Positions 10,789 to 38,363 of a stretch of 64,000 nucleotides of DNA are shown here, one piece after another. This DNA is from Luteolibacter pohnpeiensis (GTDB taxonomy: Bacteria; Verrucomicrobiota; Verrucomicrobiia; Verrucomicrobiales; Akkermansiaceae). A model generated the notes under the pieces. That model was given only the letters and a program-made list of their open reading frames with translations. It was not told where the DNA came from and did not search any database. Position 1 is the stretch's first letter; every line of letters starts with the position of its first letter. The stretch covers positions 84,545 to 148,544 of the forward strand of contig NZ_JAENIJ010000002.1 of NCBI RefSeq assembly GCF_016595435.1, written 5' to 3'. The translations under genes and the position numbers were made by a program.

Positions 10789-11148
10789 GAGCGCAGGCTG
10801 CCACCGTCTAGCGGATTCGGCAACCGACAAATCGCGGGGAAATGCAGTAGGAAATGGGCAAAATCCGCCACCTCACTTTTGAATTGCCAAGATGCGGAAC
10901 CTAGGGGAGAGTGTCGTCGTTGGAACGACGGAGGGACATTCCGGTCCGCAACGCGCGGAAAGTCCCGGGGTTCAAGCATCCCGCCCACCTTTGCTAAGCA
11001 ACGCAGCGCTCAGGTAACGGCATGCCCCCAAAAGATCACGCCACATCGTGCCTTGATCCGTCTCTTAACCACCCGCGAATCCATGGCCCAGCCATATCCC
11101 GCGGTTTGGTCCCGCCCATTACCTCCCCAATTCGTAATCTATCCACTC

Positions 11149-11901
11149 ATGGCCGGTCACAACAAGTGGTCCAAGGTCAAACACATCAAAGCACGTGTCG
11201 ATGCCGTCAAAGGTAGAGTCTTCAGCAAGTGCGCCCACGAGATCGCCCTGGCGGCCCGTGCTGGCGGCGGAGACCCGGCTGCCAATGCCCGGCTACGTTC
11301 CGCCATCGATCATGCCAAATCCGTATCCATGCCTAAAGATAACATCGAGCGTGCCATTAAAAAAGGCACCGGCGAGCTCGGCGGCGATGCGATCCAGGAA
11401 GTTACTTATGAAGGATATGGCCCAGGCGGCACCGCATTTATTGTCGAAATGGCAACCGATAACCTCAACCGCTCCGCCCAGGATACCCGCACGATTTTTT
11501 CGAAAAACGGCGGCAGCATCGGCACGCCTGGCAGCGTTTCCTATCAATTTGATCGCAAGGGAGAAATCCGTATCCCCGCGACCAGCATCTCTGCGGAGAA
11601 GCTCATGGATCTTGCGATTGAAGCAGGTGCGGACGACATCCAGAGCGATGACGACGAACACCTCATTTACACCGCGCCTACTGAGCTCGGCAGCGTCGCC
11701 AATATCCTGCGCGACCGTGAAATTTCCCTCACCTCTGAAAAACTCGTATCCATCCCACAAACACCCATTTTGATCGATGACCTGATCATCGCCCGCCAAG
11801 TCGTGAAAATTTACGACGTTATCGACGACTATCAGGACACTCACAACCTTTTCACCAATTTCGAGATCGCAGAGGAACTTCTCGATCAGATCGATCCATA
11901 A
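11149..11901 (+). CDS. yebC: YebC/PmpR-family transcriptional regulator (DUF28).
   Basis: MAGHNKWSKVKHIKARVDAVKG start, typical of the family, 250 aa. The track ORF is extended 123 codons upstream across the intergenic region. Confidence 0.9.
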   Translation: MAGHNKWSKVKHIKARVDAVKGRVFSKCAHEIALAARAGGGDPAANARLRSAIDHAKSVSMPKDNIERAIKKGTGELGGDAIQEVTYEGYGPGGTAFIVEMATDNLNRSAQDTRTIFSKNGGSIGTPGSVSYQFDRKGEIRIPATSISAEKLMDLAIEAGADDIQSDDDEHLIYTAPTELGSVANILRDREISLTSEKLVSIPQTPILIDDLIIARQVVKIYDVIDDYQDTHNLFTNFEIAEELLDQIDP

Positions 11902-21800: not shown

Positions 21801-24800
21801 CGCTATTCACCCGGAGTTTCAGGGTCTCTCCCGGCGCATAGGTTTGCTTATCGGTCAGCAACTCGATGTCACCGAACTTCCAATGCTCCGTGTCGGGAGC
21901 GCCGGAGCCATACACATTCAAAATCGCCCCGCCTTCCGTGACTTCACCGCCATCAAGCGAGAGCTTTGCGGAAAGCCGGTATTGTCCCGCAGCAGGTGCC
22001 TGGAATTTCTGCTCGATCTTGCCTTCGGCGTTCGTTTCCACCGGCCAGGAGGAAACTTCAGTTTCCTCGACTCGGCCATCGTCTCCGATATTCAGCTTGA
22101 GCAGGGCCAGGGTTCCCTTCGCACCAACCACCGGTTTCCCCGCCAAGGTAGCAGCGGAGATTTGCGCGACAACATCGTCACCTGGAGCGCTAAATCCACG
22201 CTCGGTCCAGACCACGACTTCGAATGGTTTTCGCGCTGCGATCACCTCCCCCGTGCCAGATTCCTCGCGTCTTGAAGCGTCCACCACTCGCGCCTCGATC
22301 ACGTATTTCGCGTCCATGTCGCCATGGGCCTGCAGCGCCGCTGCGGTATCCACCACCACTTCAACGGTACCATCTGGCCCGATTTCCGTGGTCTTTTGCA
22401 GCACCAACTCATCCGGCGTCCAACGGCCCCGATTTTGCCATGGCGGTGATGGTGGGAAGCAACGCCAGGAAGCCCAGGACGGGTGCCAGCTTGCGACCGC
22501 CTGAGGCCACCAGGCACCGGGTCCGTAAAGCCAATCCCATCTTGAAAGCGGGAACCAACGTTCGCCGAGCGATTTTCGTTTCACCGTGATCTCGACCCGC
22601 GCATTTCGCACCGGAGCACCATGGAAATAAGTCGCTTTGACCTTGGCGGTAAAAGTTTCGCCCAATTTCACCGGGGCATCTGGTGCCTCAACGGTCACCT
22701 CATACTCCGGCTTCCGATACTCCTCGACCCGGAAGGACATCGACGTCGAAATCTTGTCGACGATCTCGAATCTCGCACGCCATTCCCCCAGTGCCGCATC
22801 CCTGGGGATCACCGTCTCCGCCTCGACAGTTCCCATTGCATCGGTCTTCAGTTTTTCGAGTTTTACCGATTCGTCACCGCGTCCATTGTAAAGGGTTAGG
22901 GTCCCTTCCAAGTTGGCATATTTGCCATCCTCCGGATTGAAATAACCGACATTCCTTAGATAAAATTTCAAATGCACCGTATCCCCCGGCTGATAGAGCG
23001 GCCGGTCTGAAATCCCATAGCTGATGTCACGATTGCCATTCTCGAACCCAGACTCGCCGAGATAGTAGTTCAGGAAACCGGAATACGCCGACTTCCGCCC
23101 CTCGCTTTTCGCAACCGTCATCCATTGATAGTCACGGTCCCAATCGCCGCCATTTAGCAGCACCTTACCTTCCGCATCGGCAACGCGGGAAAATTCCTTC
23201 ACCAGGACATTCATTTTACGCCCCTGTGGCTCAGGCTTATTGACCGGCACGGTGCGAAAGCCGAAAAACTCAAATTCAGCCCCAGCGACAGGCTCGCCCG
23301 TTGCAGCATCGACGGCCCACCACTGTTTTTTACCATCCACATCCTTGTGCATCACGACCGTATCGACGATCCAGACCAAGGTGTTGAAAGGATGGCCATC
23401 GGCAGTTTCCGCAGTGATCCACCAAGCACCGGAATCCTCGACCGGAACTTCCAGCTCCACGTAAGTTTCCCGATGATCCGGAAGAGGCTTCAGGCTCTCA
23501 TCCCATGACTTCGCGACCTCGCCAATGTATTTGGACTCGTTATCATGAATCAATCGATTGGCCACGTTCGCGATGTTGATCATTTGATAATCGATCCCAT
23601 TGGGATTCGACTTCAGATAACTCACCGCATCTTTCAGAACGCTTTCCACATCCACCGGAGCAGCGGTCAACTTCAGCTCACGAGCATTCCGGAATACCAA
23701 AGGGAGCTTCACTTTGGAACCATGCGCCACGGATTCTGCACGATTGAACTGACCCCAGTCTCCGGTGATCTGCTCTAACAATTTCTTCCGCGAATCCTCC
23801 GGCCCCGGGCCATGTTTGGAAATGACCTGCTCCAGGCATTCTTCCGCCTTCTTCAATTGCAGGCGATCCAAGTAAACGGAAACCAGCGCGTCACCAGCAT
23901 CCCCGCCCAATCCCTTATCGTCCAAAATCGACCGATAGAGCGCGATAAAATGATAGTCCGCAGACAATTTGAAGCGCTTCACGCCATCCGATGTCTCCGC
24001 CAGGCATTCATCATCGGCGAGAGTCTCGACTTCCAGAATGCTTTTCGCCTGCTCCGGATCCTGCCAGCCCCATCGCTGATAAGAATTGAGACTTCTAATG
24101 CTGAATTCTTGCTGCAACTTCCGCGCCCGGATCATGATGACGCGCGCCTTGTTATTTTCATCCAGCTTCACCTGCTGATCCAATGCAAACCGCAATCTCT
24201 CGCCATCGTTCTTGGCTGCGTCCCAGCTTTCCGGAATCTGATAGAGGACCGGCTTGCCATCTTTCCACGGCGCCCCCTCAGTCCCTCCGTTCGGTCCGGG
24301 TTCACTCCATTCCGGTAGTGCATCCAGCGGCGTCAAGGTTTGCAACTTCCAGTCGTCCCGCTCCCCGATCAGTCCTTCGACATCTTGCCAAATATCGACC
24401 TTATCCTGAACCTCAACCGCCTTGGACTGTGCCAGCATCACCAACTGAAGGGAGCGAACGAAATCGCGGTAGTCGGTAAAAACGGTCTCCCCGGCATTTG
24501 CCACCGGATCCGCACCAGGCGCTGCCCGACGGATCGCATAGCCAGCGGAGGCATCTCGTTCAAACTCACCCGCGATGAGCCTGCCACGATGTGGAGCCCT
24601 CCAATATCCAGCAGCAGCCTCAGCCAGTAGCTTCGGGTTTTCCGCATGCGACGCTACGGCATTTTCTACCAAACCATCGAACTCGGCCCACTCGCGTAAA
24701 TTGCGCAATGCATCCACCGCATCACGCAGGTCCTCACCCGATTTGTCATCATTGATGGCCGAAAGTTGCTCACGATAAAGCGTTACCACATCGCGCCAAA

Positions 24801-24915
24801 GACCGCGTTTCATCAAGTCCTGACGCTGCTCACGCAACTCAGCCGAGGGCTGCGCCATTGCCAGGAAAGAACACCAATAGGTCAAAACACAAAGCCAAAC
24901 GGAAAATCTCATCAC
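18805..24915 (-). CDS. Alpha-2-macroglobulin family thioester-containing protein (2036 aa).
   Basis: Signal peptide. Thioester motif GCTEQ inside DYPHGCTEQTLNRF. The size is consistent with a large bacterial A2M. No pbpC partner is present in the window. Confidence 0.85.
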   Translation of the reverse strand: MMRFSVWLCVLTYWCSFLAMAQPSAELREQRQDLMKRGLWRDVVTLYREQLSAINDDKSGEDLRDAVDALRNLREWAEFDGLVENAVASHAENPKLLAEAAAGYWRAPHRGRLIAGEFERDASAGYAIRRAAPGADPVANAGETVFTDYRDFVRSLQLVMLAQSKAVEVQDKVDIWQDVEGLIGERDDWKLQTLTPLDALPEWSEPGPNGGTEGAPWKDGKPVLYQIPESWDAAKNDGERLRFALDQQVKLDENNKARVIMIRARKLQQEFSIRSLNSYQRWGWQDPEQAKSILEVETLADDECLAETSDGVKRFKLSADYHFIALYRSILDDKGLGGDAGDALVSVYLDRLQLKKAEECLEQVISKHGPGPEDSRKKLLEQITGDWGQFNRAESVAHGSKVKLPLVFRNARELKLTAAPVDVESVLKDAVSYLKSNPNGIDYQMINIANVANRLIHDNESKYIGEVAKSWDESLKPLPDHRETYVELEVPVEDSGAWWITAETADGHPFNTLVWIVDTVVMHKDVDGKKQWWAVDAATGEPVAGAEFEFFGFRTVPVNKPEPQGRKMNVLVKEFSRVADAEGKVLLNGGDWDRDYQWMTVAKSEGRKSAYSGFLNYYLGESGFENGNRDISYGISDRPLYQPGDTVHLKFYLRNVGYFNPEDGKYANLEGTLTLYNGRGDESVKLEKLKTDAMGTVEAETVIPRDAALGEWRARFEIVDKISTSMSFRVEEYRKPEYEVTVEAPDAPVKLGETFTAKVKATYFHGAPVRNARVEITVKRKSLGERWFPLSRWDWLYGPGAWWPQAVASWHPSWASWRCFPPSPPWQNRGRWTPDELVLQKTTEIGPDGTVEVVVDTAAALQAHGDMDAKYVIEARVVDASRREESGTGEVIAARKPFEVVVWTERGFSAPGDDVVAQISAATLAGKPVVGAKGTLALLKLNIGDDGRVEETEVSSWPVETNAEGKIEQKFQAPAAGQYRLSAKLSLDGGEVTEGGAILNVYGSGAPDTEHWKFGDIELLTDKQTYAPGETLKLRVNSDHADASVWLFIHMAGNSGREAKLVKLDGKSLEVPVPLDARDMPNMFIEAVTVFNGEVHSTEREVLLPPVSKLIDVSLEPAANRVQPQAHSSIKLTLKDAAGNPIRGKAALTIYDKALEAIAGGSNVGPINENFWGWKNEFYGYSIPDSIPIASGNLVRDGSEEMVHLGYYADAGIRTQSRSLYGRQRYEFAESDADPFAASPATPMMARGGAMAKGAEMAAAPEIHVRKDFADLLKWSGEIETDENGQAEIPLEFPDNLTTWKARVWAMADGTQVGEGTAEIITSKELLVRLQAPRFLVEGDEAVLSAVVHNDHSEAKSVTVSLELDGEALELVSGESPTVEMAAMSEKRVDWKVKALHAGEATLRMKVTADDDGDAVERQLPVLVHGISKQEAWSRVVTEDQESAAIDFEVPDKRRPEESKLTIRFSPTVAGAVVDAIPYLADYPHGCTEQTLNRFVPAAIARKMLTEMGVNLAEIRAKRINLNPQQLGSGREKEWQQWQRNPVFDEAELDRMISTGLDRLAGMQNADGGWGWFSGYGEHSYPHTTALIVHGLLAANQAGVDIPSTMLDPAIGWLIAYERHEAEALQRYVENQALRAAGKKVPNKNLREKVRCDAVDAFVRYVLGQALRNSEPMAAFLYRDRLDLPVYAQCLLGLEQNRMGDVARRDEMLEVVSQFLKQDAENQTAYLDLNNQTYWWYWYGSEVEANAWYLKLLAAVKPKDSVARGVAKYLVNNRRQGSAWKSTRDTAFAVEAIADYFTASGEGAPEMKVEVLVDGNSLRTVEINRDNLFDFDGTIVLSGEQVPGGKHQIELRRSGKGTLYANAYLQVFTMEDQLKATGLEVKVQRRVSRLIPLEKETETPDSTGLVTHQLEQRFRREVLKDGDSVKSGDRIEVELILESKNDYEYLLFSDAKAAGFEPLEALSGYVPGSTLNAYMEPRNESVNFYIRSLPRGKHTLRYQLRAEAPGTYKALPAMAEGMYAPELRANSDDIRLKVGE

Positions 24916-25282
24916 GCTACTATGACACCCAAACCGCTAATTTCTTGGAAGATTTATTTCTTTTCTTCGGTGCCTTTTCGCAAATAACGATGATTCCTAA
25001 TCGCTAGGCAGAAAAGCCCCAAGCAACTGGGCAAAATCTCGGAATCCATGTCCCATGAATGTTGCTGCACTCACGGAAAATGACATGGCTGAAATCGTGT
25101 TCCTGCCCATGCGTTGATTGAGCCGTATCAATCGGCCCAAGCAACGGGATCAGCCATAGCCACCGGTGGAACCGCTTGCCAGGTTCGATAGCCAAATTGG
25201 AGAGGTCAGCAATTCGTTCTTCTGTCACCTACGATAGCACCGACCTGCTTTCACTAAGTTGGAGCAATCAATCCAACTAACG

Positions 25283-25675
25283 CTATTCATAAGGGAGATC
25301 TTTGGCCGAGATTCCGATGAAATCAGGATCAGGCATTTCTGGCAGCTTGTAGGCATCAATCTTTTCCAATCCTAGAACCAATGCCTTACAAACCCGATGC
25401 ATCCCATCCATCACTCTACCATCCGGATCAAGGATGATCGGAAAACTCAAATCTGCACCATTAATAAGTTTGGAGTGATTCGCGATACTTCGGCATGTTG
25501 GAGCATCGCCTTCTGAATCATACCAATACATCTCGTCAATTTCCAGAATGCTGGTGAGTTCAATTTCCGAGGGCGTTAAATCGATCGTTTTCTTGATTAG
25601 ATTGCGCACATCCCATGCCAGCAATCCCTGTTCAGATGGCCGGAAATGATATTGAGGTCGCATTCTTTCTAACAA
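25283..25675 (-). CDS. Small ParB/Srx-fold (ParBc-like) domain protein.
   Basis: PIILDPDGRVMDGMHRVCKALVLGLEKIDAY resembles the ParB N-terminal / sulfiredoxin box (DG-HR...A). 130 aa. Same strand as the giant ATPase and 128 bp downstream of it. Confidence 0.45.
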   Translation of the reverse strand: MLERMRPQYHFRPSEQGLLAWDVRNLIKKTIDLTPSEIELTSILEIDEMYWYDSEGDAPTCRSIANHSKLINGADLSFPIILDPDGRVMDGMHRVCKALVLGLEKIDAYKLPEMPDPDFIGISAKDLPYE

Positions 25676-25803
25676 CGAATTTTCAAAAAATCTCAGCGCT
25701 AACTCAGATCGAAGAATTGAAGCAATTCAATGAATCCCCACACGCACCCTTGGCTGAAAAAAGCGTTAACTTTAATGCAATGGCTTCATCGGAATTCATG
25801 ACT

Positions 25804-28800
25804 CTATTCTTCACCAACGTTTTGCCGCACCTCGGGTTTGATGTCGATCGGAGGTTCATCATTTCCATCGAGGCTTTGGATAGGGCCGTTTTGTTCCTGA
25901 ACGGGCACCACCTTGATATCGACCTCCACTGGGACAGCTCGAAGGCCGGCGATGATGTCCCGCAATTGCTCCACAGTGGTCTCTGCAAGTGTTTGCGGTT
26001 TGATATAGTCCCGACCCGTTTCAGCAATGACAGTCCGGATGGAATCCAATCCGTCTTGAAAGGCTGAGAGTTGAGCGACGACGCGAGCCACCGGATCGTT
26101 CTCACCACTACCACCGAGCAGGCGGCGCTTCATGAATTCCTTTTTGATGTCCGTCCAACGGGCGATTTCCTTCTCATTGGCAATGCCTTCAAATTCCTTG
26201 AACTTGAGCAAGTTCGCCTCAGCCCCTTGAGTGAGTGTCTGCGATTCGTTTTGATAGTGATCCAGAATCAGTGACCGCACCTCCGCCAAAGTCATCAGTG
26301 GCAGGATCTTTTCAGCAATCCGATTCATGTTCCGATACGAACCTTGTAGCTTGAATGGCGGCTCTGTCCGATAGGCATCCTCTTGTGCCGCGCTGCGAAT
26401 GTATTCCTGGTTCACTTGCAGGATCGTGTCGCGGATCTCGAACAAATGGCGGGTGACTTTCACCATTTCCTCAATCTCTGCCGGTGCATAGTTCCCTTTG
26501 AAATCAATGCCTTCCTGAGAGCCAGTCGCGGCGATTTTCATCACCGTGTAGATGTCTTCCTGATGGCGGCTGGCTAGCTTCGCCATGACCTTGTTAGAAG
26601 TCAGGCTGTTCTCGATGTAACTCGCCTTAAATGCCTCAAGATGACCTCCAAGGATATCGCCGAGGTTATAGGTGTCCGCCCGGTTGGCGAGCATGTCCGG
26701 GATTTTGAACTTCGCGCCGCCTTCAGTATACGGGTTCCCGGCCATCACCACCGCGACCTTCTTACCACGGAGATCGTAGGTTCTGGCTTTGCCACGCCAC
26801 ACCCCTTCCATCTTGCGTTGGCCATCGCAAAGGCTGATGAAGCGTTGCAAAAATTCGGGGTTGGTGTGTTGGATGTCATCCACGTAAATCATCACGTTAT
26901 CCCCCATCTCAAGCGCGAGATTGAGCTTATCCACTTCCTCACGCGCCGAAAGGTTCGGTGCTTCGGTCGGGTCCAGGGAAACCACGCCATGCCCAAGCGC
27001 CGGGCCATTGATTTTCATGAAAGTGAGGCCAAGACGATTCGCCACATATTCCATGATCGTCGTTTTCCCGTAACCCGGTGGCGAGACAAGAAGCAACAAG
27101 CCTGAACGGTCGGTGCGTGTATCCACACCGGCGGTGCCGATCTGCTTGGCAAGGTTGTCTCCGATCAGAGGAAGATAGACTTCATTGATCAGCTGATTGC
27201 GCACAAACGAACTCATCACTCGTGGCTTGAATTCATCAAGCTTCAGCGACTCGCGTTTCTCCTCCGTCAACTGTTGCTTCAACCCGGCGCAAGCTTCGAA
27301 AGCAGGAAGATCATGTCGCTCGAACTTCATCAGCCGATCTCGAAACGCATGGTAATCGGTTTCATAAACTCCGCCATCACCAATCATCGGGTGCTGGCCG
27401 CGCAATCCCGAGACATGGATTTTCGAAACCACCTCAATCACTCCAAGCTGCTGGATGCCGCCACGCAACCAGTGAGCCGCAGCTTCCGCTACCCAGGAAA
27501 GTGGTGAGGTTCCATGCTGTGTTTCTTGAATGGCAGCCGATTTCAATTGCCCAGCCATCCAATCAAAAATCACCAGAAAGCGCCTTTCCGCATCCTTCTC
27601 AAATGCGGTCAGCACCTTGTTCATTTCAGCGACGGCACCTCTCTGATCCATTGCCAATTTGAACTCAGCGGTCGTTGCGGCTGCTTCAGCCGAAGCAGCG
27701 AAAGCTCCGCCCTCTGCCAGCTGTTCGAACAGATAACCGGCCGCCTCAGCTGCGAAAGAAACAGGCTCTGCGTGCTCACCGATACCCGCAATTTGCGAAG
27801 CCGCAGCTGAATCGGTTAGGAATGCCGAAAGCTGCCGCTGCAGCGCGGCCTGCATCGGGTGATTCGGAGTTGGAGCGGTGCCAAACGCGCGCCGCATCGC
27901 TCCGTGTGAGGCGATCATCGGCGCCAAGCGCGAACCTTCCTGCGTGTCCTTGAACACTTCCCAGAACAACATCGCCAACGTGCGAACGCGCGGGCCGAAT
28001 TTCAGCAAACCCAATGCATCATGGATCGGGCGGATCGCTGTGAGCAATTTCACCGCATCTTCGTCATGAACGCCCTTGGTATAACCTTCGGCATATCTAG
28101 CAGACATGAAGGCGTGCACCGCCTCCAGATCATTGCCTTGGTTTCCATCCTGCAGCATCCGATGAATCAACCATTCGACCCGATACACCTGGCGATTTTC
28201 ACTAATCAGTTGCTGATCCCAAACCTCGCGCGTGGCAAGAAACCGCTCATCGGTTACAGGCTCAAAAAATCCAGTTCCTGATAGATGATAGGCCATGCCT
28301 TCCTCATGTGGCACAATCGAAAGCGCAAGCTCCTGAGTATTGACCGAGAACCGATGCTTGCCGAATTGCAAAACATCTTTGCCGCCTGCGAACAACTCCT
28401 TGCGATCGCGCAGTTGTCGGATTGCATCGCTTTGCAAGGTCTTCAGCCGTGTCTGAAGATCATCCGATTTGACCGTATCACCCAAATCGCGAAGTTCAGA
28501 AATGATGTCGCGCAGCTTGGAAACCATCAGGTCACCCGCAAAGTAACCATTGATCGCGTCCAAATCCTCCTGCGAATCGGCGCGATTTTTGACACCGCTG
28601 AGAATTCGCTCAGCGGATTTCATCAGGTTACCCGCACGCCGACCGCGTTGTTCTAACAGCGACTGCTTCCGTCCCTCGAACGCTTCATAGACTTCTTCAC
28701 GCTTGCGTGAAAGTTGGTCGACATACTCATCGAAGTCAGCGAACCGACCTTCGAGTTCCTCGACCTGGACCATCACCTTGGTCAGGTATTCATCACACTT

Positions 28801-30921
28801 TTCGGGAGTATCGCAAAGGTCGATGAAATTCACCACGGCTTGACCGAGCAGCTTCATCTGCGCGCCGAATTGAGCGACGCCTTCACTTTGCGCCAATTCG
28901 CGACGCTTGGATTTCAGCTCAGCACGAATGCCATTGAGAGTTGCATACAGCGCCGAGATATTTTCGATGATCGCGGTCGTCTGTGTCGGATCTTCGATCC
29001 GCAGATTGCCAACAATATCGATCAACAATTCCAGTTCGCTGCCCGCTTGATCGAGCGCCTTCGCCACCTCATCCGCCTCGGTGGTTTTGGTGATTTGTTT
29101 GAGTATCGCGTGCTGTTCCTCAATCGCCTTCCGATAAGGATCGAGCGCCTCGTCACGCATCAGGAAATCCGCAGTCTGCTTGGAAACCTCATCAGTTGCC
29201 TTGGTGACCTGCTGGTCCAATGACTCAACAAACTGAAGGTCCACATAGCGCAGTTCACGCAGACCGATGATTTCACCGCGCCGCATCCGCAGATCGGCCA
29301 GGTTTCTAACAAAGCCTCGAATATCATCCGGAGATGTGATGCGGACCGCTTTGAGCAGTTTTTCGGTGATCGCACGGACTTCATTCGAACGAGCAGCCGT
29401 CGCCTGGCGGAGACGTTGCACTTTATCAAACTCCTCGATCGCCGAGTTGGCAGCGGCGTTGATTTCCTGAAGTGGTTCGGCGAGATTTTTTGTCTCCTCC
29501 TGATTCAACCAAAAGTAAGTATCAAGAACCTCGCGGCTGCGTTTGACCAGATCGAGATAAACATTCGCGTAGGTATCCCCTTTTCCAAACAGGATCAGGA
29601 TTTCCCGTGCTTCCGCCATCCCATGAACGAGGTTGGCATTGCCGACCTTGAACAAGAGAGACTCGCGTTTTTCCTCTGGCACCGCAACCGCGGAATCTCC
29701 GGCATACGGCGTTTGCCAAAGTTGCAAGGCATGATGTTTCTGTGGCTGATCCGGTGCTTTGAACTGCACCATTCTGCCATCGGCCGCGATCGCGAAACCA
29801 TTGCAAACCATCGGCGTTTCCACCTGCTGGGCGATGACGTTGTAGGACAACAAAACGTAATGACCGCTGGCTTGTTGATAGAAAACAAACAGGGTGTCTT
29901 CGCCATTCCCGGCCAGCAATCGGCGCTCGAAACGCAATTTACTCAGGCCGGTTTCGAATGTTTTCACCTCACCTGTCGCCAGGATATATCCATTGGCAAA
30001 CAGAAGCCCTTGGTCTTCTGGCAGTAGAACGCAGGATTCACCGATCCCATCGAGTCGATGGACGGCCTTGGTCTTCTCATTGAAAACCAGATAGCGGTGC
30101 AGCTCCTCACGGTACGGCAAAACCCGTAGCACGATGAGCGATCCGATGATCGCATAGTGAATCTCGGCATCATCCAGAGTTTGATCCGAATCCGTGACCG
30201 GCTCCGCGTAAATCCCCTCGCCGGTCTTGGTGTTATCCTCGATTTTAACCGTCAGGTCACCGCCTACCGTTTCAACGAACACCCGATCTTCAATGGAAAT
30301 GTGCGGATGCTCGCCAGAGCGATGCATATCGCGGTGTGCACGGGTCCATTGGAATTCAGTGGTCTCAGGAAACCGGCATTCATGATCCGAGCGATTGCCC
30401 TGATACTCCATGCTCCCATCACCATTCAGAAGCCACTTGAAGGTTTTGAAATCATTCTCGGTTTTCCCAATCCGCATTTTCATATGCAGGTGGGGCCCGA
30501 TCACCATGAATTTGATGAAAACCGCCTCGCGATAGTAGCGAAACAGCGTGTTGAAATCTTCAACAAACCCTTTATCGGTTAGCACCTCGCCAAGAGGGAC
30601 CGGATGAAAAGTGCCTTCGGGCTCCAACCGGTAGAGTGCGAAAACATCCTCCAACTCCATGGTCTGCTTAAGACCGAACTGGATATTGAATCCTAACAGA
30701 TAGAGATCATTTCCCAAACCGATGATATCTCGCGGAACACAGTTATGGCTGGTCGCGATGTGTCCGGTGGAAAGAAGGGCTGTCGGAATCGCGCCAAAGA
30801 CATCCTGCCGCGCGGCGTTCAACTGCTCGATCCGCTCACGCAGAACGGTCGCATGTTGATCAAGCCGGGCACGGATCACCTCATAGGCGCCGCCCTCAAG
30901 TTGTTGGGGTGCATCACTCAT
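25804..30921 (-). CDS. Giant 1705-aa multidomain protein with a MoxR/McrB/dynein-type AAA_5 ATPase module.
   Basis: Uninterrupted 5.1 kb ORF. The single AAA_5 module at about residues 1190-1330 has Walker A LLLLVSPPGYGKTT, Walker B/AAA_5 box VMIYVDDIQHTNPEFLQRFISL, a sensor-1-like VAVVMAGNPY and an Arg in IPDMLANRADTYNL. About 1150 aa N-terminal are coiled-coil or Ala-rich with no motif I recognise. There is no TM segment. Confidence 0.8.
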   Translation of the reverse strand: MSDAPQQLEGGAYEVIRARLDQHATVLRERIEQLNAARQDVFGAIPTALLSTGHIATSHNCVPRDIIGLGNDLYLLGFNIQFGLKQTMELEDVFALYRLEPEGTFHPVPLGEVLTDKGFVEDFNTLFRYYREAVFIKFMVIGPHLHMKMRIGKTENDFKTFKWLLNGDGSMEYQGNRSDHECRFPETTEFQWTRAHRDMHRSGEHPHISIEDRVFVETVGGDLTVKIEDNTKTGEGIYAEPVTDSDQTLDDAEIHYAIIGSLIVLRVLPYREELHRYLVFNEKTKAVHRLDGIGESCVLLPEDQGLLFANGYILATGEVKTFETGLSKLRFERRLLAGNGEDTLFVFYQQASGHYVLLSYNVIAQQVETPMVCNGFAIAADGRMVQFKAPDQPQKHHALQLWQTPYAGDSAVAVPEEKRESLLFKVGNANLVHGMAEAREILILFGKGDTYANVYLDLVKRSREVLDTYFWLNQEETKNLAEPLQEINAAANSAIEEFDKVQRLRQATAARSNEVRAITEKLLKAVRITSPDDIRGFVRNLADLRMRRGEIIGLRELRYVDLQFVESLDQQVTKATDEVSKQTADFLMRDEALDPYRKAIEEQHAILKQITKTTEADEVAKALDQAGSELELLIDIVGNLRIEDPTQTTAIIENISALYATLNGIRAELKSKRRELAQSEGVAQFGAQMKLLGQAVVNFIDLCDTPEKCDEYLTKVMVQVEELEGRFADFDEYVDQLSRKREEVYEAFEGRKQSLLEQRGRRAGNLMKSAERILSGVKNRADSQEDLDAINGYFAGDLMVSKLRDIISELRDLGDTVKSDDLQTRLKTLQSDAIRQLRDRKELFAGGKDVLQFGKHRFSVNTQELALSIVPHEEGMAYHLSGTGFFEPVTDERFLATREVWDQQLISENRQVYRVEWLIHRMLQDGNQGNDLEAVHAFMSARYAEGYTKGVHDEDAVKLLTAIRPIHDALGLLKFGPRVRTLAMLFWEVFKDTQEGSRLAPMIASHGAMRRAFGTAPTPNHPMQAALQRQLSAFLTDSAAASQIAGIGEHAEPVSFAAEAAGYLFEQLAEGGAFAASAEAAATTAEFKLAMDQRGAVAEMNKVLTAFEKDAERRFLVIFDWMAGQLKSAAIQETQHGTSPLSWVAEAAAHWLRGGIQQLGVIEVVSKIHVSGLRGQHPMIGDGGVYETDYHAFRDRLMKFERHDLPAFEACAGLKQQLTEEKRESLKLDEFKPRVMSSFVRNQLINEVYLPLIGDNLAKQIGTAGVDTRTDRSGLLLLVSPPGYGKTTIMEYVANRLGLTFMKINGPALGHGVVSLDPTEAPNLSAREEVDKLNLALEMGDNVMIYVDDIQHTNPEFLQRFISLCDGQRKMEGVWRGKARTYDLRGKKVAVVMAGNPYTEGGAKFKIPDMLANRADTYNLGDILGGHLEAFKASYIENSLTSNKVMAKLASRHQEDIYTVMKIAATGSQEGIDFKGNYAPAEIEEMVKVTRHLFEIRDTILQVNQEYIRSAAQEDAYRTEPPFKLQGSYRNMNRIAEKILPLMTLAEVRSLILDHYQNESQTLTQGAEANLLKFKEFEGIANEKEIARWTDIKKEFMKRRLLGGSGENDPVARVVAQLSAFQDGLDSIRTVIAETGRDYIKPQTLAETTVEQLRDIIAGLRAVPVEVDIKVVPVQEQNGPIQSLDGNDEPPIDIKPEVRQNVGEE

Positions 30922-30940
30922 CTCAAAAAAAGGTAAAGTT

Positions 30941-30967
30941 CCGGCAGGCTCTAACAGAACCTGCCGG
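30941..30967 (-). terminator. Intercistronic hairpin plus U-tract between the flotillin gene and the giant ATPase gene. Probably a partial terminator or attenuator.
   Basis: CCGGCAGG, 11-nt loop, CCTGCCGG. On the minus-strand RNA it is followed by AACUUUACCUUUUUUUUGAG and then the ATG at 30919-30921. Confidence 0.4.
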
Positions 30968-30979
30968 ATAGGGTAATCA

Positions 30980-33022
30980 TCACTTCAGGAACGAAGCGAC
31001 CTTCGCGTCAGCAAGGCCAAATCGCTCCGCGGTTCCAAGCAGACCGATCATTTTCTGGCGACTTTCACCGTTTGCATCTCCAATCAATTTTCCTAACAGA
31101 GCGGAAATGCTCAAGTTCTTCAGATCTTCAGTGGAAACACCGAAATCGGTGATCCAGGTGTTGATCTGGGATTTGAAGTATTCCGGATCGCCATTGAAGA
31201 AGGTGTCCTTCACGTCTCCGAGCACCTTGCTGTTGTCCACCGCGCGATCTACGACTTTTCCCGTAGTAATCGCCTTGGTGATACGGTCGAAGAACTCGGT
31301 TTCGCCGCCGACGATGTCGATCTTCGAATGCTTGAGGGCTTCTCCGATGACAACTGCCTGTTGCTCGGCAATCTGACGTTGGACGTCGATCTGAGCGAGT
31401 TCGATCGCCTTGTCTTTCTCGAGTTCCAGTTTGAACTCTTCGTGATCCTGACCGGCTTCTTCGAACAGCTTCATCGCATCGGCTTTCAGACGGATTGCTT
31501 CCGCATCGGCTTCGCCCTTGGCGCGCAGCACATCGGCTTCGCCCATGCCAATTGCGGCGGACTCCTTCGAAACAGCTTCGGCAAGCATCTTCTTCGCAAG
31601 AGATTGTTTCTCTGCAGAGCTTTGCTCGGCTTCGGCGATGATGATCATTTGCTCGGCATCCAGCTTTGCAGCCTGACGACGTGCCTCCGCAGATGTGGTG
31701 ATCGAGTACGCCTCTTCGTCAGCTCTGAATTGCGCTGCTTGTTTGTGAGCCTCGGCCTCTTTGGTTTGTTGGATCAGGTTTTCCTGAGCGGTTGCCTCCG
31801 CAGCCGTGACCAGCACCTTCTTCTCACGCTCCGCACCAGCGAAGGCTTCGGTGTCCTTGATTTTTTGTTGTTCTTCCACCACGGACTTTTCAACCACGAC
31901 ACGCTCGCGGATGACGTCCTGGATTTCCTTGCGTTGAATCTCGACGGCTTTTTCCGCTTCGATGCGTTTCAGCTCGGTCACGCGCTCACGTTCGATTTGT
32001 TCGACCATGCGCTCACGTTCGACGCGCTCAAGTTCGACCGCATCGGTGCGCTCTTTATTGCGCTGGGCAACCAACACCTGGCGTTGCTTGTTTTCTTCAG
32101 CGATAGCCAATTCTTCGTCTGCAGCGATGCGTGCAACCTCGGCTTTGCGGCGTTCTTCCTCGCGAACCTTGGCGGCTTCTGCTTCCTCACGGGATTGCAC
32201 CGATTCGACTTCGCGCTTCTGGCGTGCCTCGGTTTCTTTCAGCTGACGCTCAAGCTCCAGGATGGCTTCACGTGCTTCCACGTCCTGCTGTTTGATCACC
32301 TTTTCCTTATCGCGCTGAATTCGGTTCGAAAGCTTCGCTTGTTCAGCAGTGAGTTCGGTGATTTTCTTGATACCCTCGGAATCGAGAATGTTATCGGGAT
32401 CAAGCATTTCGATTGGCGTCTGCTCCAGAAAGTCGATCGCAGCATCTTCGAGGACATAGCCATTCAGATCGGTGCCGATCACACGCAGGATCGCGTCGCG
32501 GAACTTATCACGATCTTCGTAGAGCTGGATGAATTGGAAGCGCTTGCCGACGGTCTTGAGCGCTTCAGAGAATTTCGCATCGAATAGATTACGGATCTCT
32601 GCTTCACTGGATGCACGCTGGCAGCCGATCGACTCGGCGACTTTCAACACGTCTTCCTGGACGTTATTGATACGAACGAAGAACACGACTTTGATATCTG
32701 CCCGCATGTTGTCCTGACAGATCAGACCGTTTTTTCCTGTACGGTCGACTTCGATCTTTTTCACCGAAATGTCGATCTCTTCGATGCGGTGAATGATCGG
32801 CCACACAAAGCCACCGTTAAAAATCACTTTCGGTCCCTGTCCGGTCCGAACCAAGGCTTTGCCTTTCTCGACTTTCCGATAACAAGTTAGAATTAGATAA
32901 GCAAATCCAATGGTGATGATGACACCGATCACAATTAGAACAAGGCTCATCGAGCCCAGGAGATCACCCAACACCCCGGGAGGGAAATGGGAACTAATCA
33001 AGTGGATGGAGGATTCTTTCAT
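30980..33022 (-). CDS. Flotillin-family SPFH/band-7 protein (YqiK/FloT-like), 680 aa.
   Basis: N-terminal TM segment, an SPFH core (KALVRTGQG...IEEIDISVKKIEV), and a long flotillin-type C-terminal coiled coil rich in E, A, R, K and Q. Confidence 0.85.
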   Translation of the reverse strand: MKESSIHLISSHFPPGVLGDLLGSMSLVLIVIGVIITIGFAYLILTCYRKVEKGKALVRTGQGPKVIFNGGFVWPIIHRIEEIDISVKKIEVDRTGKNGLICQDNMRADIKVVFFVRINNVQEDVLKVAESIGCQRASSEAEIRNLFDAKFSEALKTVGKRFQFIQLYEDRDKFRDAILRVIGTDLNGYVLEDAAIDFLEQTPIEMLDPDNILDSEGIKKITELTAEQAKLSNRIQRDKEKVIKQQDVEAREAILELERQLKETEARQKREVESVQSREEAEAAKVREEERRKAEVARIAADEELAIAEENKQRQVLVAQRNKERTDAVELERVERERMVEQIERERVTELKRIEAEKAVEIQRKEIQDVIRERVVVEKSVVEEQQKIKDTEAFAGAEREKKVLVTAAEATAQENLIQQTKEAEAHKQAAQFRADEEAYSITTSAEARRQAAKLDAEQMIIIAEAEQSSAEKQSLAKKMLAEAVSKESAAIGMGEADVLRAKGEADAEAIRLKADAMKLFEEAGQDHEEFKLELEKDKAIELAQIDVQRQIAEQQAVVIGEALKHSKIDIVGGETEFFDRITKAITTGKVVDRAVDNSKVLGDVKDTFFNGDPEYFKSQINTWITDFGVSTEDLKNLSISALLGKLIGDANGESRQKMIGLLGTAERFGLADAKVASFLK

Positions 33023-33060
33023 GGGAGGTTTGGTTTCTAGGGTTAGATTGGGATAAATCG

Positions 33061-33747
33061 TTAGATTGAAGTAGTGGGAATGGGATGAACTAGATAAACT
33101 CCGGAGCTTTGATCGAGTGATACCACTACGATCTCAGTACCTCGGGGAATGGCGTCCGCGCCTTCTGTGAGTCTCGCATTCAGAATCGCTGGAGCACCCT
33201 GTTCACGAATGACTTCGACTTGACCGAATTTTGAATCGAGAATGATGGAACGGACCACGCCGGTTTGACCGATCACCGGCACCGCATCTTCCTGCTCCTT
33301 CAACTTTTTCATCAGTGGCACCAAAGGCTGCGTCACCAATTTGGTCACGATGGCACCCGTAATCAGAGCGCCCAATGCAAACCCAAGGGCAAGCAAATTG
33401 CTGTGACCTGGATTCAGATAATAATTCGTCAGAATGGAAATCGCCCACATGGCCGTGACCATCACGCTGATGACCACCGTGGTCGGAATAAGCCCCGCAT
33501 TTACGAATCGAAGCAATGCTCCTGCGACATCACCAATATTTCCGGCATCGCCGTCCACATCGACATCCATGTCCACGTCAACATCGGAGTCGGGCAGATC
33601 GAAATCTAACAGATCAACACCGACTGCGCCAAGCAATGATACAAGCCAGAAGACGACAACCACGCCTAGCGCGATTGTCAGCGGCAGATTGTATGGCAAC
33701 AACGCCTGCTCCCAAAGTTCTTTCACGGAGGAGACCTTAGGGAGCAC
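33061..33747 (-). CDS. NfeD/YqiJ-like membrane protein (the usual flotillin operon partner).
   Basis: Three TM helices, an acidic DVDVDMDVDVDGD linker, and a C-terminal OB-fold-like VVRSIILDSKFGQVEVIREQG...GTEIVVVSLD. Ends 38 bp upstream of the flotillin gene. Confidence 0.7.
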   Translation of the reverse strand: MLPKVSSVKELWEQALLPYNLPLTIALGVVVVFWLVSLLGAVGVDLLDFDLPDSDVDVDMDVDVDGDAGNIGDVAGALLRFVNAGLIPTTVVISVMVTAMWAISILTNYYLNPGHSNLLALGFALGALITGAIVTKLVTQPLVPLMKKLKEQEDAVPVIGQTGVVRSIILDSKFGQVEVIREQGAPAILNARLTEGADAIPRGTEIVVVSLDQSSGVYLVHPIPTTSI

Positions 33748-33798
33748 ATCGATTCATGACAACATGTTCCGCTGTGTAAACGCAGCCCATGTTTGTAG

Positions 33799-35043
33799 TC
33801 ACTTTTGATCTATGTGTTGAGAATTTCCACCCACTCCGAGGCCACGGTACATCACGGCGAAGATCACGAAACATACAGCGATCATCGACGCCAGGATTCC
33901 CCAAAAATGAAACCAGCCTCCCACTCCATCCTCAACAAAATGGTTGCGCAGCCAACCACAGACGCGAGCACCAATAAACGGACCGAATCCGGATGACATA
34001 AATGCCAGCAGTCCTTGCGCCTGCCCTCGCATTCCCGCATCCACCCGGCGATCCAGGAAGACCTGCGCCGTAATGAAATAGAATGTATAGCAAACGCCAT
34101 GAAGGCCGATACCCAAGATGTGCCAACCTATGACGCCAACCAGCCCGGCATACGCGCTCAAGCTAAAACGCAGCGCGGACAATCCCAGCGCCATCAACAG
34201 CACAACTTTCACACGCAATCTCGCCATGACCGAACCAACGATCAGTAGCGCTACGATTTCACTAGCTTGAGCCACCGCCATGGTCGCAGTCGGATGCGTA
34301 TCCCCCATTGCCTTCAACTGCTCCGGCGAAAACATGTAGAATGCCGCAAGCGGGATGGAGAACAAGGCGGTCACCACAAAGAAAACGCAATGATCCCTTT
34401 GCTTCAGCAGCGTGAACGCATCAAAGCCTAACAGACTTCGCCACGACCTGCTCTTGCCCAGTGGTGGTGTATAGGGAAGGCAAAGCCCGATGACGCCTGC
34501 CGCCAGACGGCCCAGCGCGCCAGCATAGCCCGCCAAAGGAGAGCTATCCGCATGCAACACGAGTCCTGTTAACAGACCGCCACTCACCCATCCCAGGGTC
34601 GCTCCTATTCTAACAAATGGAAAACTTCGCTCGGACTTCGCCAAATGGGTAAACGAAACCGTGGCAAGATAACCCCACATCGGGCCACAAGCCAAGGAGT
34701 ATAGACCTAACAAACCGATAAACCACCACGCATTCCAGCCACGATGCAATACGAGAAATGCCAGCGCCAGAAAGATCGATCCGAGCAACGAGCTATAGGC
34801 AAACAATCGGTTTGCGGCAACCCGCTGATCCGCCAATGCGCCGCCGATCAGTGGAGAAACCATTGCCGCAAACGGCGCCACCATGAATGCGATCGCAACC
34901 CACTCGGACAAGCCCAGGGATCGCATGATATTGGTGAGGGCGGGCATCCAACAGCCCGATGACATGCCTTGAAAAAAGAACGCGAGCCAAATCCAGACGA
35001 ATGTTCCGTATTTGCCACTACCGCGTTCTGGGTCGTTCCTCAC
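33799..35043 (-). CDS. MFS transporter.
   Basis: About 12 TM helices and a GxLaDr-like motif (GGALADQRV). 414 aa. Ends 51 bp upstream of the NfeD-like gene. Confidence 0.8.
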   Translation of the reverse strand: MRNDPERGSGKYGTFVWIWLAFFFQGMSSGCWMPALTNIMRSLGLSEWVAIAFMVAPFAAMVSPLIGGALADQRVAANRLFAYSSLLGSIFLALAFLVLHRGWNAWWFIGLLGLYSLACGPMWGYLATVSFTHLAKSERSFPFVRIGATLGWVSGGLLTGLVLHADSSPLAGYAGALGRLAAGVIGLCLPYTPPLGKSRSWRSLLGFDAFTLLKQRDHCVFFVVTALFSIPLAAFYMFSPEQLKAMGDTHPTATMAVAQASEIVALLIVGSVMARLRVKVVLLMALGLSALRFSLSAYAGLVGVIGWHILGIGLHGVCYTFYFITAQVFLDRRVDAGMRGQAQGLLAFMSSGFGPFIGARVCGWLRNHFVEDGVGGWFHFWGILASMIAVCFVIFAVMYRGLGVGGNSQHIDQK

Positions 35044-35154
35044 TTCATGAGCTTGGCTGTGTGACTCAAGAGATCCAGTCGGTTTTCATGGGAATTACAA
35101 ACTCGCACCCCGTAGAATCTACGAATTCCCTTGCTAAATGACCTGCGACTTGAT

Positions 35155-35168
35155 TTGTTCCACCGAAC
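35155..35168. promoter_or_regulatory. Candidate LexA operator (SOS box) TGTTCCACCGAACA.
   Basis: Perfect TGTTC-N4-GAACA palindrome 14 bp upstream of the lexA ATG. It lies in the 138-bp divergent intergenic region shared with the MFS gene. A third half-site, CTGTTCACC, follows directly. Confidence 0.6.
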
Positions 35169-35181
35169 ACTGTTCACCCTT

Positions 35182-35793
35182 ATGCACGCCCTCACCCCAC
35201 GCCAACAAGAGATCCTGGACTTTCTAAAAACGTCCCAACGCGAGTCCGGCATCATGCCGTCGACTCGTGAAATTCAGCACCATTTCAATTTCGCGAGCCA
35301 AACTGCAGCGATGAGCCACCTCCGTGCGCTGGAGAGAAAAGGCGTGATCCAGAGGCTCGCCGGAAAAGCCCGAGCCGTCATTTTCCCCGATGAACTCAAC
35401 CGTGCCGAGGTTGTTACCATTCCGCTTTACGGTCGGATTGCCGCCGGTATGTCCCAAGACGCACCTCAGGAACAGCAAGGATGCATTTCCGTCGATATTG
35501 CATCACTCGGCATTCCACGTCATGCCCGCACATTCGCGTTGAAAGTCCATGGAGACTCCATGATTGACGCGCACATTTGCGATGGGGATACGGTGATTCT
35601 GGAATTCAAGGAAGCACGTAAAAACGACATTGTTGCCGCTTTGATCGATGGTGAAACCACTCTCAAACGCTATGTTTTGGACAAAGGGCGACCGTTTCTA
35701 AAGGCAGAAAATCCAGATTACCCGAATCTCATTCCTGCCCGTGAGCTGATCATTCAAGGCGTGCTCGTCGCGCTGCTTCGGCAAACCAACTGA
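35182..35793 (+). CDS. lexA: LexA repressor (S24 peptidase).
   Basis: MHALTPRQQEILDFL...HLRALERKGVI wHTH region. Cleavage-site and catalytic Ser/Lys region (AAGMS..., GDSMIDAHI, TLKRY). The track ORF starts 17 codons early. Confidence 0.9.
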   Translation: MHALTPRQQEILDFLKTSQRESGIMPSTREIQHHFNFASQTAAMSHLRALERKGVIQRLAGKARAVIFPDELNRAEVVTIPLYGRIAAGMSQDAPQEQQGCISVDIASLGIPRHARTFALKVHGDSMIDAHICDGDTVILEFKEARKNDIVAALIDGETTLKRYVLDKGRPFLKAENPDYPNLIPARELIIQGVLVALLRQTN

Positions 35794-35969: not shown

Positions 35970-37265
35970 TTGAAGCCCCCTAACATGATCAGTTTCTCGT
36001 GCCCTGCATGTCGGGTGAGATTGACACTCCCCGTTCATCTGGCAGGCGTAGTAGGACCTTGTCCTAACTGCCGGACCGAGATCCAAGCTCCATTAGCCTC
36101 AAATTACCGTCCATCGTTATCGGACATTCCCCTACCCGTTGTTTCATCCCCAGCTGCACGAACGGAATACCAACCCACTCCCGAGTCGGGCGACCCAGAA
36201 GCTCCCATTCGGCTTGAGCATCCATTTCGCCCGGAACCACGACATTTGCCACAGCGATCGGATTTCCCTGAGCCTCCGATCGGCAAGCCCATGCCGGAGC
36301 CAGATCCCTACAACACAGGGCGCGCCTATCGTCCGTCCGCTTACCGGCGGCGTCCGATTTTACGAATGCTGATCCCGATCTTCGGCATCCTCATCTTGGC
36401 CGCCATTGTAAGTGGACTGTGCATGTTCCTGATGCATCGAAAAACCGATCCGTTGCCGCTGACGAATGCAGAGGACCTGCAACCAACGTCTCCGCCCAAA
36501 GCCAGCCCCCCCCCTGAGGAATTATCATCCATCGGCGGAGATGCCCCCAGTGCCCCAGAGACTCCTGATGCGTTGCCAGCCCCGAAAGAGAGTCCGGATT
36601 TCGCACAGGTCGCCAAACAAGCTGGTGAAGTGCTTAATCAATTTCTGAATGCTCAAAGCCTCGAAGAACGGCTCCCATTGATCGAGACCAAAGCAGATCC
36701 TACCACTCTGCAAGACACAGTTCTGGCCAAACCAATGCCTCCGGTACAGCGATCGGTGGTGGAAATGCAACAGCCGCCGGATCCGATTGAAAACCTCATC
36801 GACACCTACTTCAGCGTCGCATTCAGAACGGAAAACAACGGCACGGATCAACAGCTGATCTTGGTTCGAACACGACAATCCGCAAATCCGAAAGTGGTGG
36901 TTGAGCCTTTCCTCGATTTGTATGGCGGGAGATTGAAGCAATTCTGCGAAACTCCGGTCAGCAAGGCTGAAACCTTTGAAGTGGTCGCCTCAGCGCTAGC
37001 AAATTGTTACAATGAGGCGGTGCCGAATCGTGAGAAAAAGATGGCCATCAAACTCATGGCGCACGATAACACGCGGCCCATCGCCGAGGCGTATTTCAGC
37101 AGCAAGCACTCTCAGATAGCCGATCTTCTTTCGGATGATCTTTCGGGTTTCCGCTATGGCCAGGCTCAGCCATGCACGATTTTGCTCCGATGGAACACCG
37201 AGGAAGATCCCGAGAAGCCTTTCATTGAAGCGCTCGATATCAGCGCGCTCAATTGGAACCCTTGA
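35970..37265 (+). CDS. Zinc-ribbon (CxxC-x17-CxxC) membrane protein with a proline-rich linker and a C-terminal domain of unknown function.
   Basis: MISFSCPACRVRL...GPCPNCRTEIQAP, a Pro-rich spacer, TM helix ILRMLIPIFGILILAAIVSGLCMFL, then a roughly 260-aa soluble domain. Confidence 0.6.
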   Translation: MKPPNMISFSCPACRVRLTLPVHLAGVVGPCPNCRTEIQAPLASNYRPSLSDIPLPVVSSPAARTEYQPTPESGDPEAPIRLEHPFRPEPRHLPQRSDFPEPPIGKPMPEPDPYNTGRAYRPSAYRRRPILRMLIPIFGILILAAIVSGLCMFLMHRKTDPLPLTNAEDLQPTSPPKASPPPEELSSIGGDAPSAPETPDALPAPKESPDFAQVAKQAGEVLNQFLNAQSLEERLPLIETKADPTTLQDTVLAKPMPPVQRSVVEMQQPPDPIENLIDTYFSVAFRTENNGTDQQLILVRTRQSANPKVVVEPFLDLYGGRLKQFCETPVSKAETFEVVASALANCYNEAVPNREKKMAIKLMAHDNTRPIAEAYFSSKHSQIADLLSDDLSGFRYGQAQPCTILLRWNTEEDPEKPFIEALDISALNWNP

Positions 37266-37695
37266 TTCGACCGGCTTCCTTTAAAGCGCGCCAGCCACCT
37301 CGCAAGACTTTCACATCTGCGCCGAGATCCAGAGCCCGCACCTTTGCGGCAACTTGTCGGCTAAGGCCGCAGTTTTCATCATCGCAATAAACCACCACAT
37401 GGGGGTTCTGCATGATGTGCATGACGGCGTTCGCTTCAAGCTCCTGCGCGTCCTCTGCAGTGTCCAGATTCCATAGGATCGATCCTTCAAGCCCATCTTT
37501 TTCCCAAGCTTTTCGGGATCTGGCATCGATCCAAACTACTGGTTCGACAACCTCACCCAAGCAGATTTCATCCGGTTTGCGCGTCGATGGATCACAAATC
37601 ACCATTCGTACCGGTGCCCCCTTCACGAGATAAGTGACACCTGCAGCTGCAAACGTGAGGCCCACAATGATTGCGAGCTGAGTGAACGATTTCAT
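37249..37695 (-). CDS. Rhodanese-domain sulfurtransferase (secreted or periplasmic).
   Basis: Signal peptide MKSFTQLAIIVGLTFAAAG. Active-site loop VVVYCDDENCGLSRQ. The start overlaps the upstream stop as ATGA. Confidence 0.75.
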   Translation of the reverse strand: MKSFTQLAIIVGLTFAAAGVTYLVKGAPVRMVICDPSTRKPDEICLGEVVEPVVWIDARSRKAWEKDGLEGSILWNLDTAEDAQELEANAVMHIMQNPHVVVYCDDENCGLSRQVAAKVRALDLGADVKVLRGGWRALKEAGRIKGSN

Positions 37696-38363
37696 GACTT
37701 TTTCTGAATCACAGCAAATGCCTGGAGCAGCTTGTAGCGATCCATCGGACAATCCGTTTCAATACGGAAAATGCCTAAAGTGCCCATTTTTTCAGTAGAG
37801 ACCGGGGTAACTTCAAGCTCGTATTCCTCACCATCCTTGATGGTTTTCAAATTCGTGGTGAAAGCGTTGGTCGAGGATTTTACCGCATCAAGATGAACGG
37901 GTTTGTCATCATGAACCGCGATTTTGATCGTCTTGGAACTCGTCTTATCCCCCACAGTCCACTTCAAGGTTTTTGGCTCCATCGAGATCAAAACCGGGAT
38001 GTTGATGTGGATTTTGAGGGTTTGGGTCGCGACATCGACATCCTCTCCCTTGAGCCAAACTTTCACTGGTTTATCGACCTCACCGGAAAAATTCCCGATA
38101 TCGAATACCGCTTGGATCTTTCCGGATTCTCCCGGCGAGAACTGGGTTTTGCCGTCACTTACTTTGACCGATACACATGAGCAACCGCCGTCAGTTTTCT
38201 CAATCGTCACCGGGTGCTGAGTATCGTTGGTGAAATCGAACTCGGCCGTCACACTCCGGGCCGCTGGGTCGGCCGTAATTTCCTTGGAGGTTTCAGTAAA
38301 CTTGAGACCACCCGCAAACAGCGTCCCAGCCAAGAACAGCCACGATCCAATGACGACTTTCAT
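37692..38363 (-). CDS. Secreted DUF1573-like protein (paralog A).
   Basis: Signal peptide and a TDGGCSC motif. About 50% identical to the neighbouring ORF, for example IEKTDGGC.C....VS.GKT...PGESG. Confidence 0.6.
   Translation of the reverse strand: MKVVIGSWLFLAGTLFAGGLKFTETSKEITADPAARSVTAEFDFTNDTQHPVTIEKTDGGCSCVSVKVSDGKTQFSPGESGKIQAVFDIGNFSGEVDKPVKVWLKGEDVDVATQTLKIHINIPVLISMEPKTLKWTVGDKTSSKTIKIAVHDDKPVHLDAVKSSTNAFTTNLKTIKDGEEYELEVTPVSTEKMGTLGIFRIETDCPMDRYKLLQAFAVIQKKS

Follow-up and report, generated by a model that had tools for sequence, protein, structure and literature searches.

In Luteolibacter pohnpeiensis (Verrucomicrobiota, Verrucomicrobiales, Verrucomicrobiaceae), lexA and a minus-strand gene of the major facilitator (MFS) nucleoside:H+ symporter family diverge from a common intergenic region, which contains a palindrome resembling a LexA-binding site. 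The question raised by this locus is whether the palindrome is the operator of lexA, and whether it also controls the MFS gene and the three genes that follow it on the minus strand, which encode a YqiJ/NfeD-like protein, an SPFH/flotillin-like protein and an AAA+ ATPase. The window referred to below is the whole 64-kb stretch of DNA analysed in this study, and the coordinates of its relevant features are given in Table 1. The initial annotation of this DNA described the region between lexA and the MFS gene as 138 bp long, and this is borne out: the region spans 35044-35181, between the lexA ATG at 35182 and the MFS start codon, a GTG at 35043. The product of lexA is a true LexA according to its Pfam domains (LexA_DNA_bind, E 1e-20; Peptidase_S24, E 2e-22), and is 100% identical to the NCBI entry 'repressor LexA [Luteolibacter pohnpeiensis]'. 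None of the genes recA, uvrA, imuA and splB was found within the 64-kb window, leaving lexA as the sole SOS gene there.

Table 1. Coordinates of the predicted regulatory sites and of the genes surrounding the lexA-MFS intergenic region in the window.
Feature	Position	Strand	Basis or remark
Three-gene module (YqiJ/NfeD-like, SPFH/flotillin-like, AAA+ ATPase)	25804-33747	-	Pfam and NCBIfam
DUF3686-DUF7902-AAA+ ATPase gene, 1705 aa	25804-30921	-	Pfam/NCBIfam
SPFH/flotillin-like coiled-coil protein gene, 680 aa	30980-33022	-	Homologs with Band_7
YqiJ/NfeD-like membrane protein gene	33061-33747	-	YqiJ_N 20.3 bits, under the Pfam cutoff of 23
MFS nucleoside:H+ symporter family gene, divergent from lexA	33799-35043	-	Pfam Nuc_H_symport (PF03825), E 3.5e-60
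MFS promoter-like element: CTGGAT (35078-35073), N18, AAGCTC (35054-35049)	35049-35078	-	Ends 5 nt before the GTG
Predicted lexA promoter: -35-like cTTGCTA (35130-35136), 17-bp spacer, TTTGTT (35154-35159) entering the box	35130-35159	+	Conserved spacing
Primary LexA operator (predicted), perfect TGTTC-N4-GAACA palindrome TGTTCCACCGAACA	35156-35169	.	Uniqueness, published motif, conservation
Secondary degenerate LexA site (predicted) TGTTCACCCTTATG	35171-35184	+	1 bp 3' of the primary box; only the first TGTTC kept; overlaps the lexA start codon
lexA, 203 aa, gene under operator control (predicted)	35182-35793	+	Pfam LexA_DNA_bind and Peptidase_S24

The palindrome is spelled TGTTC-CACC-GAACA, with no mismatches and all ten arm bases intact, and a motif scan of both strands found no second perfect TGTTC-N4-GAACA in the window. 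It had initially been placed at 35155-35168, one base lower than its real position. Its location upstream of the lexA ATG was correct, although the distance of 14 bp given for it was not, as 12 nt were measured between the end of the box and the ATG. The extra half-site that had been noted, CTGTTCACC, is real and begins one base past the box as part of the degenerate site, the last three bases of which are the lexA ATG itself. Together with the C that precedes it, this site forms a tandem unit (C + TGTTCACCCTTATG, 35170-35184) directly 3' of the primary box. Matches with up to two mismatches were not enriched in the window (22 found compared to 28.8 expected), none of the 22 precedes a plausible SOS gene, and the scan at this threshold revealed no second box in 35044-35130 or in the rest of the intergenic region.

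The motif that the initial annotation named for Verrucomicrobia is indeed the published one. Erill, Campoy, Kilic and Barbe (2016, Front Mol Biosci 3:33; PMC4951493) described the LexA motif of this phylum, discovering TGTTC-N4-GAACA with MEME in 116 Verrucomicrobia lexA, recA and imuA promoters, and the palindrome of the window is the same as this EMSA-backed consensus. Single-base mutagenesis EMSA in V. spinosum showed every arm base to be essential, and LexA binding was validated on the recA and lexA promoters of V. spinosum and on the lexA promoter of O. terrae (PMC4951493). The core regulon comprises lexA, recA, imuA and splB, with the imu mutagenesis cassette included (PMC4951493). More than half of the Verrucomicrobia lexA promoters contain a conserved site followed by a degenerate one that retains the first TGTTC, an arrangement defined as tandem when the second site lies within 1-2 bp and keeps at least this first TGTTC; in the V. 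spinosum lexA promoter the tandem sites are 1 bp apart and give two EMSA shifts (PMC4951493).

The predicted site in the window shares with these published operators the 14-bp consensus, the position before lexA and the 1-bp tandem layout, as well as the phylum, order and family of the host, but differs in its species, its CACC spacer and its divergent neighbor; L. pohnpeiensis is unnamed in the main text of PMC4951493. A close counterpart is the lexA promoter of Haloferula sp. BvORR071, which is given in the supplement of that paper as AAATCCACGAATTTTCGCTTGCCGTAATTTCACGACCATGGTTTGTTCCTAAGAACACTGTTCACTAAGCCATG. Its layout of CGCTTGCC-N17-TTTGTTCCTAAGAACACTGTTCAC...ATG matches the ...GAATTCCCTTGCTAAATGACCTGCGACTTGATTTGTTCCACCGAACACTGTTCACCCTTATG of the window, including the cTTGnn-N17-TTTGTTC context upstream that is common to both, whereas the gene divergent from lexA encodes a 303-aa hypothetical protein in Haloferula rather than the MFS protein. 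The LexA (DinR) box of Firmicutes and Actinobacteria, GAAC-N4-GTTC, has a related half-site chemistry, and the junction between the two sites of the window (GAACA-C-TGTTC) contains the same pentamers as the DinR box in an inverted arrangement. However, the junction gives GAAC-N3-GTTC rather than the N4 of the DinR box, so the Firmicutes box is not recreated, and the host LexA is probably of the Verrucomicrobia type. Junctions of this sort in O. terrae have been used to argue for the evolution of the motif (PMC4951493).

The conservation of the box was examined in an overall comparison of approximately 170 related loci. A LexA protein scan with one genome per species yielded 80 loci from Verrucomicrobiales and Chthoniobacterales, and box statistics were computed for the 56 usable Verrucomicrobiales lexA loci, with the box sought within 150 bp of lexA. 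The box was perfect in 45 of these 56 loci and differed at one position in another 8, so that 53 of 56 contain it in the same place, and 45 of the 53 box-bearing loci have the half-site (N1 + TGTTC) after it. The distance from the end of the box to the first ATG is nearly the same in relatives (median 13 nt) as in the window. Within approximately 10 kb on either side of lexA, loci L001-L057 contained no other perfect box. The recognition-helix region of the protein, ASQTAAMSHLRALERKG, is nearly invariant among the Verrucomicrobiales LexA proteins whose genes bear the box, while that of the Chthoniobacterales LexA deviates (ASQTSVMQY...). In an alignment of ten intergenic regions (A1), the arms and the half-site are invariant while the spacer drifts.

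These observations bear on two other explanations of the palindrome itself. The first is that it arose by chance or serves another dimeric regulator unrelated to LexA. Dinucleotide-preserving shuffling does yield perfect boxes by chance at an expected 0.05 per window (5 of 100 shuffles had one somewhere), but a chance match is not expected 12 nt before lexA, nor would one be kept in position, sequence and tandem half-site in 53 of 56 loci while spacer and flanks drift. As the palindrome also fits a motif validated by EMSA in the same phylum, this explanation is very improbable. The second, that the inverted repeat works as a hairpin in RNA or DNA, such as an attenuator or a structure of the 5' UTR, instead of as a protein operator, draws on its 5-bp arms, 4-nt loop and proximity to the start codon, but is just as hard to credit: the folding energy is only -2.6 kcal/mol (z = -0.7), the fold was equally good or better in 49 of 200 shuffles, and Rfam gave no match for the palindrome. 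The absence of both a meaningful hairpin energy and an Rfam match fits a protein-binding site, and because the arms are invariant in relatives rather than covarying, they point to sequence-specific recognition and not to structure.

The lexA genes of Chthoniobacterales (L058-L080) are preceded by TGTTCAnTTGAACT at -40; just past the lexA stop there is a second box, a perfect TGTTC-N4-GAACA. In L070 (10625-11837), this second box lies 41 bp before an ORF with a RecA fold that resembles ImuA, which is followed by an IMS/ImuB-like ORF. Since a perfect box here precedes imuA/imuB-like genes, the motif appears to mark SOS operators in the present data set. The L070 locus indicates a lexA / imuA-imuB arrangement with what would be separate operators.

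Upstream of the box, cTTGnn-N17-TTTGTTC is kept in 9 of the 10 aligned loci, with an AT-rich tract ahead of it in most relatives. The hexamers of the predicted lexA promoter are weak by E. coli standards. Scans for a consensus sigma-70 promoter and for terminators gave no match at the intergenic region; we therefore infer the layout of the lexA promoter, and its overlap with the box at the -10 and the transcription start, from the conserved spacing. Under this layout, LexA dimers of this species would occupy the perfect TGTTC-N4-GAACA site, and the weaker site, which starts 1 bp further on and covers the start codon, would be filled cooperatively. Both sites would lie directly downstream of the -35-like element and over the -10 and transcription-start region, and because they cover this region, bound LexA would block transcription of its own gene. 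Following DNA damage, RecA-stimulated self-cleavage of LexA via its Peptidase_S24 domain would lift the block. It is thus highly likely that, in L. pohnpeiensis, lexA is autoregulated through a tandem operator made up of 35156-35169 and 35171-35184, a reading backed directly by the sequence, by its uniqueness in the window, by its conservation and by the fact that motif and arrangement are the same as those published. The operator is of an already published kind, a known site of lexA self-repression, and is therefore no discovery.

The second part of the question concerns the minus strand. The initial annotation held that the box serves a divergent promoter of the MFS-NfeD-flotillin-ATPase string and that this cluster may be part of the SOS regulon, which would mean that one operator in the shared 138-bp region represses both lexA and an operon made up of the MFS gene and the three genes after it. 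The geometry allows such control on paper, as the box lies 113 bp from the MFS start codon and thus within the -250..+50 window that PMC4951493 used for regulon prediction while demanding evidence in at least three genomes. The divergent lexA-MFS pair also recurs in 11 related loci. However, the MFS gene appears to have an upstream element of its own. The sequence CTGGCA-N18-TAGnnn is found approximately 10 nt before the GTG in at least 14 MFS loci, with or without an adjacent lexA (including L002, L003, L006, L007, L014, L161, L162, L164, L166, L168 and L171), and from its sequence it looks like the promoter of a leaderless or near-leaderless mRNA. The copy in the window is degenerate (CTGGAT...AAGCTC compared to CTGGCA...TAGnnn). 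A sigma-54 reading of the MFS-proximal CTGGCA was considered and dropped by eye, with the GC of the -12 at an inconstant position.

The LexA box does not abut this putative MFS core promoter but lies 77 bp past it in the window and 45-127 bp past it in relatives, so that the box varies in its spacing to the MFS element but keeps a constant spacing to the lexA ATG. Orthologs of the MFS gene that are not located beside lexA (approximately 62-65% identity) were found in six contexts (L164/165, L166/167, L168, L169, L170 and L171), and, allowing up to two mismatches, no box was found in the 400 bp upstream in any of the six. In addition, two genomes, one of them L. yonseiensis, have a convergent gene after the MFS gene that neighbors lexA, and the MFS gene would thus be monocistronic there.

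The remaining three genes form a module whose nearest relative is the E. coli yqiJ-yqiK pair (NfeD-like + flotillin/SPFH). Common to both are a YqiJ_N-like membrane protein followed by an SPFH/Band_7-like protein with a long coiled coil, while the module exceeds the pair by the 1705-aa DUF3686-DUF7902-AAA+ ATPase; relative to yqiJ-yqiK, the YqiJ_N match of the module is below the cutoff and its SPFH-like protein has no direct Pfam match. The comparison with yqiJ-yqiK revealed no connection to LexA. For this 680-aa protein, Pfam and a profile search of PDB sequences returned nothing, and the NCBIfam FloT match reached 20 bits compared to a cutoff of 700. Among its 14 homologs (44-81% identical), 3 match Band_7 (best E 1.7e-12), and because of these Band_7/SPFH matches the label 'flotillin-like' appears acceptable; two homolog translations with stop codons were excluded from the alignment. 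PDB matches of the ATPase are confined to the Cdc48/p97-type AAA core. A defence-system reading of the module was rejected, as PADLOC gave sub-threshold AAA matches alone. The 58-bp gap between the SPFH-like and ATPase genes contains a perfect hairpin with a 13-bp stem, TCCGGCAGGTTCTGTTAGAGCCTGCCGGA, at 30940-30968 (-); in relatives, this gap ranges from 12 to approximately 480 bp.

A metagenome scan for the DUF3686 domain provided 80 further loci (L081-L160), and in approximately 60 of them the YqiJ, SPFH and ATPase genes are colinear with variable neighbors; the module never adjoins an MFS gene or a close lexA among these 60. Conversely, the module is missing from all 80 lexA loci, among them 6 in which lexA and the MFS gene are still paired and at least 8 kb of flanking sequence is available, and the linkage of module, MFS gene and lexA was found in 0 of approximately 160 other loci. 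Upstream sequence was available for 42 module loci, and none of these has a box with up to one mismatch, while two-mismatch boxes occur at the level of chance (7 compared to approximately 6 expected). The closest relatives (73-77% identity) differ in the genes upstream, and wherever the upstream region can be read, it is one of their own. Judging from these gene contexts, the module seems to be an autonomous unit whose presence at this place in this species is incidental. In the window (18805-35043), the MFS gene flanks it on one side and an alpha-2-macroglobulin gene (18805-24915) on the other, which gives the impression of an insertion or exchange. A different order is seen in L164 (5234-9230), where the MFS ortholog is followed by convergent genes for a photolyase-related protein (DPRP/FAD_binding_7), flavin reductase and SDR, and then by an alpha-2-macroglobulin gene.

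There are several features of this genome that could nevertheless favor bidirectional control. Only 51, 38 and 58 bp separate the four minus-strand genes from one another, and a convincing terminator was not seen after the MFS gene in the window, so that co-transcription is possible in this genome. Moreover, a CTTGCC-containing region found upstream of the module in close relatives is missing from the window, and the module may therefore depend on read-through here. The Pfam title of DUF3686, 'ATPase involved in DNA repair', would also suit membership in the SOS regulon, but no evidence was found to support this label, and no mention of DUF3686 / PF12458 was found in the literature. Against these features stand the boxless upstream regions of the module and of the MFS orthologs elsewhere and the 77 bp between the box and the MFS element. 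Comparative absence and geometry thus argue that neither the MFS gene nor the module is a conserved LexA target, and the proposals that the box serves the divergent promoter and that the cluster belongs to the SOS regulon find no support. SOS control of the cluster by a box acting in both directions is unlikely; we give it a small residual probability because read-through and long-range effects are possible in this genome.

For the same reason, a slightly smaller probability still is kept for a lineage-specific version, in which, within the Luteolibacter subclade that has the lexA-MFS pair, LexA at the tandem operator would also damp the MFS gene, and in L. pohnpeiensis read-through would place the module under damage control. 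Such damping might proceed by DNA bending, or by competition for the AT-rich tract between the two -35 regions. If true, this rewiring would connect the SOS response of this lineage with the uptake of nucleosides and with a membrane-scaffold ATPase.

Several observations concern other parts of the window. Downstream of lexA (35970-38363) there is a block that encodes a 431-aa protein, for which Pfam and NCBIfam searches were empty, a rhodanese-domain protein and two DUF1573 proteins. This block is syntenic with lexA in L003, L007, L008, L010, L012 and L162, and is inverted and located upstream of lexA in L040-L043. At 10780-11901 (+), the longest ORF of a YebC/TACO1-family gene adds approximately 125 N-terminal residues, and its start is probably over-called. 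The gene at 11913-13763 (+) encodes a Rho factor with a long N-terminal extension that has a weak histone-H1-like (HC2) match.

The tandem operator adds one more species to a published and experimentally validated motif, which helps annotation but leaves current understanding unchanged. The more useful result of this study is the negative one, namely that an intergenic region held in common with lexA is no evidence of SOS control, and that annotation of the flotillin-like/AAA+ module as DNA-damage inducible or as 'DNA repair' is unwarranted on such a basis. The three-gene module itself is uncharacterised and widespread, and may merit a study of its own.
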